In this document: one piece after another, positions 13,695 through 17,332 of the stretch
How the letters are laid out: each line of letters starts with the position of its first letter
Position numbering within the stretch: the stretch's first letter is position 1
Origin: a virus
Taxonomy: Duplodnaviria > Caudoviricetes
Reading direction: 5' to 3' (one strand)
IMG/VR virus record: IMGVR_UViG_3300031669_000010
Span: 1-64,000 of that record
DNA: 64,000 bases
Notes under the pieces: generated by a model
Databases searched by the model: none
Seen by the model: the letters and a program-made list of their open reading frames with translations, nothing else
Told to the model about the DNA's origin: nothing
Program-made: the position numbers and the translations under genes

Positions 13695-13955
13695 ATGGCT
13701 GATACGAAAAAGGTTATAATCAAAAAAGGTAGTATGCTATTAGAAGCTAATCGTAGTGATTTAGTCGAAGTAAGTGAAACACATGATGGAATTGCTTTTA
13801 ATTTCAAAGGTGGGATACAATTATATTATACAAACGATTTCATGCCAGTGGGAATGAAAGAAGTCATCAGAAATACTTCAAATCATTTTGATAATCAAAA
13901 AATTATTTTTGATCTGGATAATGAAAGACAACCTGCAAGGGTTGATGCTACCTAA
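13695..13955 (+). CDS. Hypothetical protein
   Basis: 86 aa, RBS GGAG, last gene of the cluster. Confidence 0.6.
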   Translation: MADTKKVIIKKGSMLLEANRSDLVEVSETHDGIAFNFKGGIQLYYTNDFMPVGMKEVIRNTSNHFDNQKIIFDLDNERQPARVDAT

Positions 13956-13973
13956 TCATTTAATAAATTATAT

Positions 13974-13987
13974 CTATATATATTAAT
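13974..13987 (+). promoter_or_regulatory. CTATATATATTAAT motif, copy 2, upstream of the ncRNA array
   Basis: Exact match to 3752-3765; about 30 nt before the first structured unit. Confidence 0.5.
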
Positions 13988-14016
13988 ATCTGAAGATAAA
14001 CATTTCTTACAATTAT

Positions 14017-14077
14017 ATGGAGACTTGGTGTGATTTCAGATTATTGGAAATCAACGCAATCACATTTACAACTCCAT
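14017..14077 (+). ncRNA. Y-RNA-like unit E1
   Basis: ATGGAG/CTCCAT outer stem, ACTTG internal loop, GTGTGATT/AATCACAT inner stem. Confidence 0.6.
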
Positions 14078-14086
14078 TATATTTTT

Positions 14087-14182
14087 GCCGAGAAGACTTG
14101 GTGTAATTTCTGATCGCGGTTCAAGACCGTGTTGGCGTTATTGTATGTCAATACAAATAAAATTACATATATTACTTCTGGC
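14087..14182 (+). ncRNA. Y-RNA-like unit E2 with a T-arm-like hairpin
   Basis: GCC-G-AGAAG/CTTCT-GGC outer stem, ACTTG loop, GTGTAATTT/AAATTACAT inner stem; internal CGCGG-TTCAAGA-CCGTG (T-psi-C-like) and TTGTAT-GTCA-ATACAA hairpins. Confidence 0.65.
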
Positions 14183-14191
14183 ATTATTTTA

Positions 14192-14253
14192 TGGGGTGTA
14201 CCACTAACATAATAAACCATTCGGGGTTCATTGTTTTTGTGGCTCGCACCCCA
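14192..14253 (+). ncRNA. Variant stem-closed unit E3
   Basis: TGGGGTGT/GCACCCCA stem; shares GGGTGTACCA with E4. Confidence 0.45.
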
Positions 14254-14262
14254 CCATTTTAA

Positions 14263-14320
14263 CGGGTGTACCAAGGATGGATACAGTTAATAGCTGGTAG
14301 TCTGAGGATAAATACACCCG
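14263..14320 (+). ncRNA. Variant stem-closed unit E4
   Basis: Perfect CGGGTGTA/TACACCCG stem; shares GGGTGTACCA with E3. Confidence 0.45.
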
Positions 14321-14371
14321 ATCAGTTTATGCCGGGTGATACACATGTTTATCCATGTGCCGGCTCCATCG

Positions 14372-14504
14372 TTGGTAGAGACTTTGTATAGATTCAGAAA
14401 ATTACGTGTATAACGTAAGGCCCTTAATCGACAGGGATAAATGTCGATTGCCAGGTTTGGCAGAACCACAAAAACTGCCACGACTATACCTATCACTCTA
14501 CCAA
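14372..14504 (+). ncRNA. Y-RNA-like unit E5 (multibranched)
   Basis: TTGGTAGAG/CTCTACCAA outer stem, ACTTT loop, GTATAG/CTATAC inner stem; internal hairpins TTACG/CGTAA, AATCGACA/TGTCGATT, TGGCAG/CTGCCA. Confidence 0.6.
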
Positions 14505-14518
14505 ACCTTTTATACAGT

Positions 14519-14653
14519 TTCCTGAAAGACTCTAGTGTAATTTCTGATATAAAGATCCAATGGCGGATCATTTGCATATGGAGCAAAAGACGGCAAGTTC
14601 GATTCTTGCTGTATCAACCAAGTAGTACCAATTACATTTTCTACTTTCAGGAA
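14519..14653 (+). ncRNA. Y-RNA-like unit E6 enclosing a tRNA-like cloverleaf
   Basis: Perfect TTCCTGAAAG/CTTTCAGGAA outer stem, ACTCTA loop, GTGTAATT/AATTACAT inner stem. Confidence 0.7.
14545..14620 (+). tRNA. Atypical tRNA-like element, anticodon ATG (His-like), encoded CCA
   Basis: 76 nt: acceptor TGATATA/TGTATCA, D stem GATC/GATC with GG in the loop, anticodon stem TTTGC/GCAAA with loop ATATGGA, T arm GCAAG-TTCGATT-CTTGC, discriminator A + CCA; lacks U8 and A14. Confidence 0.6.
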
Positions 14654-14660
14654 TTTTTTC

Positions 14661-14720
14661 GGGGTGACTTAGTGTGACTTTAGATTCCAAGCGGCCGAAA
14701 AGTCACACTTAATTCACCCC
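14661..14720 (+). ncRNA. Y-RNA-like unit E7
   Basis: GGGGTGA/TCACCCC outer stem and AGTGTGACTT/AAGTCACACT inner stem with the same GACTTnGTGTGAYTT core. Confidence 0.6.
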
Positions 14721-14826
14721 AAACCCACAACTAAAAAAGGGAAATGAATGGTTTTATTTTTCATCCTAAAAAATTGGATATGAATATCCCACGTTGGAAT
14801 TAACTAATTAAGGAGGAATCAGAGAA

Positions 14827-16356
14827 ATGACAGAAAAATCGCTTAAAATTGATTCTGGAATGTTACAGTTTGCTCCGAAAGGTGCGTTCTATGAAGAAGC
14901 TGATCAACAGTTTCAACGAGTATTCCAGATGTGGACAGAGCTATTTTCATTTGACCGAACCCTATTTTGTCTAACCACACTTTTGGGTGGTACCGGTTTT
15001 GCCAAAGGTTCTATGAACCACATGTTACTCGCCAATCCTCAAAGTGTAACAGGTCGTGAACTTGTGCCTGAGGGAATGGCATTCGATTATGAAAGTAAAG
15101 TTATTAGGTACAATCTCTCAAAGGAAAGAATTCCAAGAGCATTGAAAAACTTGCTGATGTTAACTGGGGCCGAAGGATGCACTAAAGTCAACAATTCCCG
15201 GACCAGAAAAATCATCCTTGAGTTTATCTTCAATCGCTCAATTTCAGAACTTGAAGGTCTGGCAATCAATTATAAATCCAAATTGAAGAAATTAGTCAGA
15301 CATGCCCTTGGAAAACAAGAAGTCTATAATATCCTTAATGGGGATGCGCTGTTGTTTAAAAAACGTATCGGTCGTTATAAAATGCAAGCTCTTCCAGTGA
15401 TTTTTCATATCTTTGATAAAAGACCTCCGGCAGGCACTGCCCACACAAGATATACAAAAATTGAAAACTATTGGGATCTTCGTGAAGCTGCAGAATCCGG
15501 TAACGTCGAACAATTCAGAAAGCTCATGGATGGGATGCCGAATCGAACTGTCATGGGATTCAGAAACACTTATAAAGTGCCAATTGAAAAATCTGAAATC
15601 TATGAAGTAGCAAAGATGGGCAACAAGGAATCCCTTCAAATGGAAGCCGCTGTTAAACGAAGTGGTGCTACCAAAGCAAAAGAGATCAACTACAAAAATC
15701 AAGACATCTATGATCTCTGGAAAGCATTCTATTTTAAACTCCTAAATAACGATCCGGACAACATGGACAAGATCATCGAAGCGATCGACTATCAAGCATG
15801 CAAAATGGATCGGATGGATATAGGAGATTGTGTCGTTATCATTGATGCATCAAGATCAATGGTAGGAAGTAATGAAAGAAAGCTACACCCATTCTTGACT
15901 TCTCTCTCAATTCTTTCAGCACTGGAAAATGTGAAGGATGTTATTTACGTTGGAGGAAAAAGAGTGGCAACCCCAACCATAGATCCGATCAGTGTTATCA
16001 TTCCTGATAATCATACGGATCTTTGGCGAGGTCTCACAGAAGCTGTGATTGCCGGTACCCCGAACATTGTTGTTATTTCGGACGGTTATGAAAATACAAT
16101 AAAAGGTATGTTTGAGCATACCTACAATCATTTTAAGAGTTCAGGTTATGAATTTAATCTGATACATTTAAATCCTGTATTTTCTGCTGATGCAAAAACC
16201 GGTTCATCGAGAAGGCTGACGGCTGACACAAAACCGTTGCCTGTATCGAGTTACAAGTTTCTTGAGACAGAATTGATCTTTGACCGCATGATCGAGAACA
16301 GAGAAGTGGTCAAGAATCTGCTCGTCAGCAAGTATCACAAACTATTAAAAGAATAA
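14827..16356 (+). CDS. vWA-domain protein, putative divergent TROVE/Ro60-like RNA-binding protein
   Basis: 509 aa; C-terminal MIDAS VIIDASRSM and IVVISDGYEN after a long basic helical region, matching Ro60 size and architecture; adjacent structured RNAs. Confidence 0.55.
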   Translation: MTEKSLKIDSGMLQFAPKGAFYEEADQQFQRVFQMWTELFSFDRTLFCLTTLLGGTGFAKGSMNHMLLANPQSVTGRELVPEGMAFDYESKVIRYNLSKERIPRALKNLLMLTGAEGCTKVNNSRTRKIILEFIFNRSISELEGLAINYKSKLKKLVRHALGKQEVYNILNGDALLFKKRIGRYKMQALPVIFHIFDKRPPAGTAHTRYTKIENYWDLREAAESGNVEQFRKLMDGMPNRTVMGFRNTYKVPIEKSEIYEVAKMGNKESLQMEAAVKRSGATKAKEINYKNQDIYDLWKAFYFKLLNNDPDNMDKIIEAIDYQACKMDRMDIGDCVVIIDASRSMVGSNERKLHPFLTSLSILSALENVKDVIYVGGKRVATPTIDPISVIIPDNHTDLWRGLTEAVIAGTPNIVVISDGYENTIKGMFEHTYNHFKSSGYEFNLIHLNPVFSADAKTGSSRRLTADTKPLPVSSYKFLETELIFDRMIENREVVKNLLVSKYHKLLKE

Positions 16357-16369
16357 GGAGGTCATCACC

Positions 16370-17332
16370 ATGTCTATATTTAAAACGTTGAAGTTCGAAG
16401 ACATCGAGATCGGCGATCTACAGTCCGTCGATGAGATGACCATTGTTCCAATATTGGGTGGTGAAAGGGGTGACGTAGCAAAACCTTCAAGTCTGAGTTT
16501 CAGACGCACAACTTCATATGGAACAATGGTATTTGAAAATACCGACCCTGCTAAGGAAGCAATTGTCCCTGCCAATATAATGGTTCGAAGTCGAGCTGGT
16601 CAGGATCATGCGATGAGTGGTTCAGGAATCGTAATGAAAAATCAATCTCGTTCATTTGATAATGCATGCTGTATCGAACAAACTCAAGGTGGATATTTGG
16701 ATGAGTCAGGTGATCAAGATGTCCTTCCAATCAATTTGAGAAAAGCATTACTCGACCCAGAAATAAGATCTCTTCATAGTTATGATAAGTTGTGGGGGAA
16801 GATTAGTGCGTGGATGAAAGGAGTTAACATGTCCAGCAGGGGGTCAGCACATCTGAGGTATTTCTACGATACTCCAGATATCAAACAAGCATTGGAGGAT
16901 TTCGCAGCAGAGTTTGAGCCAGTTGAAAATCAAATTGGTGCGATCGTGATGTTCTCCGGTATTCCAGTCGGTATTGAAATTATGCCTTCTTCTGACCATT
17001 GGGAGGCATACTGGAAGCTATTGATCCGTGGATGTTATGGAGCAGAAATGATTCGATTAAAAATGTTGGGAAAGCTGAAATCCTCAACATTAATCCTACC
17101 GGACATTCCAAAAGAAGCAGGACCAAAAGAAGTCCAAAAGATTCTTACAGATTTCACTCAACACTTAAGAGAAGAAGTCCTGCCAATACTGGAAAATATT
17201 AAAATTAAAACCCAAAGAGTCGTGAACACAGATGGTACATTACAGACAACACTTCTGCATACATCATCCGGAGGTGGGGGTGATATTATCCAGCAGGGTG
17301 ATATGCCTGTGTATCTGTCATTGGTACTTTAG
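16370..17332 (+). CDS. ARPP-1/DUF6569-like domain protein
   Basis: N-terminal MTIVPILG, GQDHAM and ACCIEQTQGG resemble the LtifPl...QDR...CVEqGRW pattern recalled for this family; not verified by search. Confidence 0.45.
   Translation: MSIFKTLKFEDIEIGDLQSVDEMTIVPILGGERGDVAKPSSLSFRRTTSYGTMVFENTDPAKEAIVPANIMVRSRAGQDHAMSGSGIVMKNQSRSFDNACCIEQTQGGYLDESGDQDVLPINLRKALLDPEIRSLHSYDKLWGKISAWMKGVNMSSRGSAHLRYFYDTPDIKQALEDFAAEFEPVENQIGAIVMFSGIPVGIEIMPSSDHWEAYWKLLIRGCYGAEMIRLKMLGKLKSSTLILPDIPKEAGPKEVQKILTDFTQHLREEVLPILENIKIKTQRVVNTDGTLQTTLLHTSSGGGGDIIQQGDMPVYLSLVL

Follow-up and report, generated by a model that had tools for sequence, protein, structure and literature searches.

Why would a phage enclose what looks like a complete transfer RNA (tRNA), down to an encoded CCA end, within a longer RNA stem directly ahead of a protein-coding gene? 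This question is raised by positions 14519-14653 of a 64,000-nt stretch of DNA (positions 1 to 64,000 of IMG/VR virus record IMGVR_UViG_3300031669_000010, Caudoviricetes; hereafter the window), where a tRNA-like cloverleaf lies nested in a paired stem, 207 nt upstream of, and on the same strand as, a gene whose 509-aa product is predicted to adopt the fold of Ro60. Ro60/Y-RNA particles are found in animals, bacteria and a few phages. Here, by comparing the 135-nt unit with its relatives, we find that the cloverleaf and both of its flanking helices are maintained by compensatory changes, that the triplet at positions 34-36 is unconstrained, with elbow bases and a U33/R37 frame that are nearly invariant, and that the module occupies a fixed position, on the same strand and upstream of genes for the Ro60-fold protein and an ARPP-1 protein, in about 90% of homologous loci. 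In our analysis the unit is probably a phage Y-like RNA, in which a predicted protein ring would bind a conserved 'handle', leaving the tRNA-shaped cargo on the particle to recruit, gate or sequester a tRNA-recognising factor.

A cloverleaf nested in a paired handle

ARAGORN made a single call in the 64-kb window, tRNA-His(atg) at 14545-14620 on the + strand, and when 931 nt were searched with the Rfam tRNA model (RF00005) the module scored 30.5 bits (E = 3.4e-4), above the gathering score of 29 that marks a structure of this family. An Rfam scan of the whole window with default filters and gathering thresholds returned nothing, the tRNA being recovered only in the small-region search. The original prediction for this locus had drawn a 76-nt cloverleaf with CCA, U33 and an AUG anticodon, and had proposed a tRNA finder as a check; run here, ARAGORN returned exactly this molecule and, together with the Rfam model, bore the drawing out. 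The absence of U8 and A14 that had also been pointed out is evident in the cloverleaf drawn by ARAGORN, which has A8 and C14 in their place and lacks the U8-A14 tertiary pair of the tRNA core. The parts of the module are as follows:

14545-14620, + strand: 76-nt tRNA-shaped module, identified by ARAGORN, the Rfam tRNA model (30.5 bits), our own covariance model R1 (78.1 bits) and covariation of four helices in relatives
14545-14551 with 14610-14616, + strand: acceptor stem, 7 bp including one G.U pair
14554-14569, + strand: D arm with a 4-bp stem
14571-14587, + strand: anticodon arm with a 5-bp stem and 7-nt loop; U33, AUG at 14578-14580, G37
14588-14592, + strand: variable region, 5 nt
14593-14609, + strand: T arm with a 5-bp stem and loop UUCGAUU
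14617 and 14618-14620, + strand: A73 and encoded CCA, as in the drawn ARAGORN cloverleaf

The inverted repeat that flanks the module (14519-14542 and 14630-14653) is real, and folds as a 10-bp outer stem, a 5 x 5 internal loop and a 9-bp inner stem. The whole 135-nt unit has a folding energy of -39.5 kcal/mol, which relative to shuffled sequences corresponds to z = -4.4, and its minimum-free-energy structure includes both flanking helices. Their G.U pairs fit the + strand only. The enclosing elements, with values from 18 aligned full-length units, are:

14519-14528, + strand: 5' strand of the outer stem, 10 nt, unit-specific; pairs with 14644-14653; 97.6% paired, with compensatory changes at 3 pairs
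14528-14547, + strand: handle motif GACU-N-RU-N-UUYWGA, spanning the 5' internal loop, the 5' strand of the inner stem (14534-14542) and the first 3 acceptor nucleotides
14621-14629, + strand: single-stranded 3' linker from CCA to inner stem, unpaired in the folds; A-rich and of variable length in relatives
14630-14638, + strand: 3' strand of the inner stem; pairs with 14534-14542; 87.5% paired, with compensatory changes at 5 pairs
14639-14653, + strand: 3' internal loop (14639-14643) and 3' strand of the outer stem (14644-14653), from fold, inverted repeat and alignment

According to the original prediction, the acceptor stem continues into the helix of the array. The nesting of the module within a conserved stem stands, but direct continuity does not, since the acceptor and the inner helix are separated by an asymmetric junction, of 2 nt in the 5' strand and of ACCA and a further 9 nt in the 3' strand.

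A conserved shape with a free anticodon

Relatives were drawn from IMG/VR viral contigs of up to 248 kb, yielding a comparison set of 91 loci that encode homologues of the 509-aa protein. ARAGORN called a tRNA upstream of this gene and on its strand in 38 of the 91, with at least 13 different anticodons. Across 32 aligned homologues called in this way, 94.5% of cells were paired and 20 of 21 pairs had changed on both sides, as compared with 38-48% pairing in a slid-partner control. A covariance model built from the ARAGORN-called homologues and searched over 547 kb gave 120 matches, every one of them on the + strand and upstream of the gene. At least one module was present in 71 of the 77 loci with at least 400 nt of upstream sequence, and two in 48 of them, with median distances before the start codon of 271 nt and 568 nt for the two module positions, proximal and distal. 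Over 105 distinct matches, pairing reached 99.8% in the D stem, 99.2% in the anticodon stem, 94.5% in the T stem and 71.6% in the acceptor. The original prediction had named a lack of conservation of the D, anticodon and T arms among homologous arrays as the result that would speak against it; all three arms are conserved there, with compensatory changes, and on this point it survives. The same nested unit is found in a 462-kb phage whose Ro-like protein is only 25% identical and is likewise followed by ARPP-1, and in LR756500 the unit and the Ro-like gene lie ~1.4 kb apart, with other genes between them.

This pattern bears on whether the unit has any function, since it might instead be a tRNA pseudogene in decay, or a mobile element derived from a tRNA and bounded by terminal inverted repeats. 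Decay would account for the missing U8 and A14 of the window copy and for a sister unit in the same array that lacks D and anticodon arms. However, position and strand are fixed in 71 of the 77 loci, with proteins down to 25% identity, compensatory changes are found in all helices, the G.U pairs agree with a single strand, the bases of the elbow hardly vary and the module was not found scattered in both orientations across the relatives' sequences, making this the least probable of the explanations that we considered.

The constraint falls very unevenly on individual positions. The elbow bases (G18, G19, G53, T54, T55, C56, A58 and C61) are near-invariant, U33 is present in 61 of 64 proximal units and a purine at position 37 in 63 of 64. 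U8 is found in only 25 of the 64, so that its absence is common in this RNA family. Positions 34-36 carry 20 different triplets in 58 proximal units (A34 in 19, UUA in 9) and, judging from 18 close pairs, are the fastest-changing site of all, with 0.37 differences per site as compared with 0.19 in the variable loop and at most 0.07 in the stems. A decoding tRNA keeps its anticodon, and one of a decoding kind, among orthologues; this module does not. As the relatives keep the tRNA shape and not the anticodon, the module appears to be a look-alike that would not itself decode.

To set this against genuine phage tRNAs, we turned to two related contigs, of 223 and 248 kb, that carry arrays of real tRNAs. 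These arrays lie in a separate region, with 26 and 29 Rfam matches of 47-76 bits; ARAGORN finds 22 and 27 tRNAs in them, His(GUG) included. The Ro-linked modules of the same two contigs are isolated and score 47.5 and 53 bits. In the real arrays A34 is restricted to Arg(ACG), U8 is present in 48 of 49 tRNAs and CCA is encoded in 47 of 49, so that the encoded CCA of the module may have been inherited from a phage tRNA ancestor. Since the nearest real phage tRNAs are 58-71% identical to the module and have no single identity, no donor tRNA can be named.

It is therefore difficult to see the module as a genuine decoding tRNA of the phage, whether a tRNA-His with A34 edited to inosine or a tRNA of another specificity, whose leader and trailer pair fortuitously. 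This explanation has in its favour the ARAGORN and Rfam calls, the canonical U33/R37 frame and a CCA that is encoded as in real phage tRNAs, but it sits badly with 20 triplets among orthologues with nearly unchanged bodies, UUA (9 units) among them and A34 in a third, with the missing U8 and A14, with the location of the relatives' His(GUG) in a separate, high-scoring array away from the isolated, lower-scoring Ro-linked copy, and with the presence of the same handle on non-tRNA cargo within the same array; we consider it highly improbable. The tRNA-His identity in particular was examined and dropped. Bacterial tRNA-His is recognised by a GUG anticodon, G-1 and C73, whereas the module has AUG, a C at 14544 (position -1) and A73 at 14617; its triplet is freely variable among relatives, which have their His(GUG) elsewhere.

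As a separate observation on the real arrays, those at L096 (G002:C1:156000-175999) and L097-L098 (G001:C1:53000-83500) each contain a tRNA with a CUA anticodon, labelled Pyl by ARAGORN. This is a possible amber suppressor in these related jumbo phages, and a hint that TAG may be read through or recoded in the phage group.

The Ro60-like neighbour and the array before its gene

The presumed protein partner of the unit is encoded immediately downstream:

14827-16356, + strand: Ro60-like gene, 509 aa, predicted to fold as a TROVE-type helical ring with a vWA domain carrying a MIDAS-type DxSxS motif

The protein gave no sequence match in Pfam, PHROG or PDB, even when a 15-member profile was used. 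Ten distant family members recovered in a HMMER search of all libraries also lacked any Pfam domain, so that no sequence bridge to TROVE was found. An AlphaFold (AF2) model of the full-length protein (pLDDT 77), by contrast with these searches, aligned with Ro60 of Thermus phage phiLo, Xenopus and human and with Deinococcus Rsr (Foldseek probability 1.00, Z up to 13.1). Because a vWA domain alone could explain such a match, the N-terminal 330 aa were modelled separately and compared with 48,161 PDB representatives without the use of Foldseek. A Z of at least 8 was reached by three chains only, all of them Ro60 (1yvp, 12.9; 2nvo, 11.0; 9l5y, 8.8), with the next at 6.1. The C-terminal vWA domain has matches with Z of about 11 at a root-mean-square deviation of 2.8-3.4, and its DxSxS motif is invariant. 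Taken together, the matches of the ring by itself and the vWA domain with DxSxS indicate that the protein, as modelled, has a Ro60 architecture although it is invisible to sequence methods. The family is large, comprising 417 clusters at 50% identity.

All large open reading frames (ORFs) of the window are on the + strand. Those around the unit run in the order RNA polymerase beta'-like, beta-like, two small ORFs, a gap of ~870 nt without a credible ORF (13956-14826), the 509-aa ORF, ARPP-1, two unnamed ORFs, an ATPase and a DUF2201 vWA-like protein. In relatives, on contigs of 42-248 kb, the same order recurs: RNA polymerase beta'/beta, a gap of ~700 nt, the Ro-like gene, ARPP-1, two unnamed ORFs (~190 and ~315 aa), an AAA ATPase and DUF2201. 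The public sequencing runs listed as containing this phage include none of RNA; the DNA runs are soil and marine-sediment metagenomes. We also note that the Ro60-fold gene (14827-16356) is followed directly by the ARPP-1 gene (16370-17332), and that this pairing recurs at 25% identity in the 462-kb phage (L095 2372-4983). ARPP proteins are predicted enzymes acting on ribose moieties (PMC9503650); the pairing with a Ro-like protein is not mentioned in that paper.

The handle motif is concentrated in the gap. It occurs five times on the + strand within 700 nt (at 14022, 14095, 14380, 14528 and 14666), compared with 4 loose matches in the remaining 127 kb of both strands of the window. In 50 of 67 loci of relatives the 1 kb that precedes the gene holds 3-6 copies, whereas 734 kb of sequence outside these regions contains 15. 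A GACT lies within 45 nt before the tRNA-like module in 64 of 64 proximal and 41 of 43 distal units, and some unit flanks have a second GACT. The same handle also flanks non-tRNA cargo within the same array. The 135-nt unit would then be one member of a transcribed array of Y-RNA-like small RNAs of the phage, each presumably composed of its own outer stem, a conserved handle of internal loop plus inner stem, and a variable cargo, which in the case of 14519-14653 would be a complete, non-permuted tRNA-shaped domain. A second member is recognisable further upstream:

14087-14182, + strand: sister unit of the array with a T arm only, orthologous to the distal tRNA-like unit of relatives

Distal-unit orthologues, such as those of L080 (1875-1948), L001 (2462-2535) and L016, have D, anticodon and T arms, and 48 relatives have an orthologue. 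The copy in the window has lost ~35-40 nt, corresponding to the D and anticodon arms, and retains only the T arm and a 3' hairpin.

The interval between the second and third units (14183-14371) was found to hold three further strong hairpins (z = -3.2) without a GACU handle, two of which begin with the repeated motif GGGTGTACCA. These may be additional small RNAs of another type.

Could the module instead act in cis, as a leader of the Ro-like mRNA that serves as a processing signal, an attenuator or a T-box-like sensor, and not as a trans-acting RNA? Such a role is suggested by its place on the same strand, 207 nt before the start codon, and a scan for sigma-70 promoters and terminators, which is uninformative here, detected none in between. 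The other data run counter to this idea. Pairing between module and mRNA leader is not conserved over 64 loci (-10.3 kcal/mol, as compared with -10.4 for shuffles), the complement of the anticodon loop in the array does not covary and is no better in a module's own locus than in other loci, the unit of LR756500 is separated from its Ro-like gene by ~1.4 kb with other genes, and the module-bearing unit is just one of 3-6 with the same handle. We therefore regard a cis-acting role as very unlikely. One candidate pairing in the window, between 14546-14561 of the module and 14773-14788 of the Ro-like leader (16 nt, 81% complementary), was rejected, being unconserved in relatives and no better than shuffles.

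Relation to known Y RNAs and possible roles of the cargo

By its position next to a Ro60 orthologue and on the same strand, the unit is a candidate Y RNA in the broad sense of a Ro60-associated small RNA, both in the window, where a Ro60-fold gene follows after 207 nt, and at 71 of the 77 loci. Systems of this kind are already known, since phage Ro60 proteins bind Y-like RNAs encoded just upstream (PMC12135203). The case described there, Ro60 of Thermus phage phiLo with Yrl1 and Yrl2 (PMC12135203; PDB 9KOP, 9L5Y), shares with ours the upstream Y-like RNAs, and its protein ranks first or close to first among the structural matches of the window protein. In contrast, the phiLo protein is recognisable by sequence, and its Yrl RNAs carry the CGAA motif, with no tRNA module reported for them in the text consulted. 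Other precedents are TROVE proteins of jumbo phages, for which a 'tRNA-like partner' has been noted, and a Listeria phage in which candidate Y RNAs encoded ahead of an Rsr-like gene are highly transcribed. Other bacterial tRNA mimics, described in a 2026 preprint, belong to unrelated families.

The closest parallels are found among bacterial Y RNAs. YrlA of bacteria and mycobacteriophages (Chen et al. 2014, PMC4201824) is likewise a small RNA whose gene immediately precedes, on the same strand, one for a Ro60-type protein. Its 5' and 3' parts form a stem bearing a tRNA-like domain, in which the D and T arms and the contacts of the elbow are conserved. YrlA, however, mimics a tRNA in circularly permuted form: a loop closes its acceptor stem, and it lacks both an anticodon loop and a free CCA (10.1101/312249; PMC4201824). 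Its anticodon-stem side joins the Ro-binding stem, whereas the window unit has its acceptor end towards the handle and follows the unpermuted order of a tRNA: acceptor 5' strand, D, anticodon, T, acceptor 3' strand. The window-unit family has a full anticodon arm and often an encoded CCA, and has neither the permuted domain nor the sequence motif of YrlA, nor a match to the Rfam Y RNA families. The YrlA motif GNCGAAN0-1G has no match in 13974-14826, where the single CGAA is the loop of the last hairpin, implying that the handle differs from the known bacterial Ro-binding site, and no Y RNA family appeared among the Rfam matches of 13900-14830 up to E = 10, tRNA being the only Rfam family that the unit matches.

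The published model of Yrn1 from Deinococcus radiodurans places D-like, anticodon-like and T elements in the order of a tRNA (PMC4201824). By description its layout is similar to ours, with an RNA-end stem that binds Rsr, and Yrn1 tethers Ro60 to PNPase. This tempers the earlier suggestion of a different topology: the wiring is indeed unlike that of YrlA, but a tRNA order has already been modelled for a Deinococcus Y RNA. The mimicry of Yrn1 is partial: its D arm is doubtful, its 'anticodon' loop has 6 nt, and it lacks a variable region and a CCA, whereas every arm of the window unit is canonical and the module is accepted as a tRNA by ARAGORN and Rfam. Transfer-messenger RNA (tmRNA) and the 3' tRNA-like structures of plant viruses also have a CCA end and an acceptor/T-arm region recognised by tRNA enzymes, but their 3' CCA is free, they are aminoacylated, and they are neither nested in a stem nor linked to Ro60. 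What is new here is thus the handle, a very diverged protein, the ARPP-1 partner, and a complete non-permuted cloverleaf cargo with a canonical anticodon-loop frame and a free triplet; a literature search found no paper describing a tRNA-cloverleaf cargo in such a Ro-linked unit.

A precedent of another kind comes from Mycobacterium smegmatis YrlA, a nicked, tRNA-ended Y RNA, which also has a 7-bp acceptor and is cut by RNase P and given a CCA in vivo, with both halves recovered with Rsr (PMC4201824). There, the cut opens the closed acceptor loop of a permuted mimic and the CCA is added, whereas the window unit encodes its CCA and a cut would detach the 5' strand of the handle. The unit could accordingly be conceived as a caged precursor, from which a host RNase P cut at 14544/14545 and 3' trimming would yield a 76-nt tRNA-like molecule, either free or tethered by the 3' strand only, to serve as a decoy that draws off host effectors directed at tRNAs, for instance anticodon nucleases or tRNA-modifying toxins, with an anticodon that tracks those effectors. 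The in vivo cleavage of the M. smegmatis RNA is in keeping with this, as are the features given in the literature as RNase P determinants, which the window copy possesses (7-bp acceptor, T arm and RCCA), and the fixed U33/R37 around positions 34-36 that change about twice as fast as the variable loop. The neighbouring ARPP-1 comes, furthermore, from families discussed in virus-host conflict systems (PMC9503650).

An NCCA tail is also found far more often than expected by chance, in 33 of 64 proximal and 24 of 43 distal units. However, an acceptor with at least 6 of 7 pairs is found in 36 of 64 proximal units and in none of the 43 distal ones, and the two features coincide in 27 of the 64 proximal units, so that, with few units combining a workable acceptor and NCCA, release is not a general property of the family. 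The window copy, with 7 of 7 pairs and ACCA, has one of the most complete acceptor ends. As NCCA is kept in more than half of the distal units, none of which has a workable acceptor, it seems to be selected for a reason other than closing the acceptor end of a tRNA. A decoy for a given anticodon nuclease should, moreover, keep its anticodon, and A34, present in a third of units, is lacking in the natural targets. Finally, an encoded CCA is an anti-determinant for RNase Z, which tells against 3' maturation of the module by this enzyme. On balance we doubt that the unit is a caged precursor. A speculative extension, for which our expectation is lower still, combines the two ideas: the Ro60-like ring might hold the tRNA look-alike by its handle and, after an RNase P cut, present or release it as bait for host enzymes that attack or modify anticodon loops, in which case an arms race would have left its trace in the free triplet within a fixed U33/R37 frame, and the retained CCA would be the end to be threaded into the ring or recognised by tRNA enzymes.

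We favour the alternative of a retained cargo on a Y-like RNA. The Ro60-like ring would bind the handle, as Ro60 does the conserved bulged stem of Y RNAs, and the cargo would remain on the particle, offering a generic tRNA surface made up of the elbow, the anticodon loop and often CCA. With the tethering of PNPase to Ro60 by a Y RNA as its model, this surface might recruit, gate or sequester a tRNA-recognising factor of host or phage origin. Several points weigh against this reading. The U33/R37 frame and the frequent CCA exceed what a mere scaffold needs, and would also fit a released, free tRNA-like molecule. The handle is not the known Ro-binding site, as GNCGAAN0-1G is missing, and the Ro60 assignment derives from predicted structure, with no sequence link between the family and TROVE. 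The acceptor of the window copy is weak, with one G-C pair, and competes with a longer T stem: in the minimum-free-energy fold the inner acceptor pairs are given up for 3 additional pairs in the T stem, and the full cloverleaf within its handle comes to -32.4 kcal/mol, compared with -39.5 kcal/mol for that fold. The homologues were gathered with tRNA-finding tools, which inflates the percentages of pairing, although this ascertainment effect is small, given that about 90% of loci are positive. Finally, the transcript of the unit, its ends and its binding by the protein are predictions from the DNA sequence.

We know of no effector that has been identified as recruited by the tRNA-like domain of a bacterial Y RNA, and the module is a cleaner bait with which to find such a partner. 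It belongs to a large family with a new handle, whose cargo is as near to a real tRNA as a mimic can be and yet is free of the constraint of decoding; tRNA finders will label such modules of huge phages as odd tRNAs or suppressors (His-AUG, 'Stop-UUA'). The family thereby provides a natural experiment on which features of a tRNA the particle needs, in which the elbow, the anticodon-loop frame and CCA have been kept, and the triplet and U8 have not.
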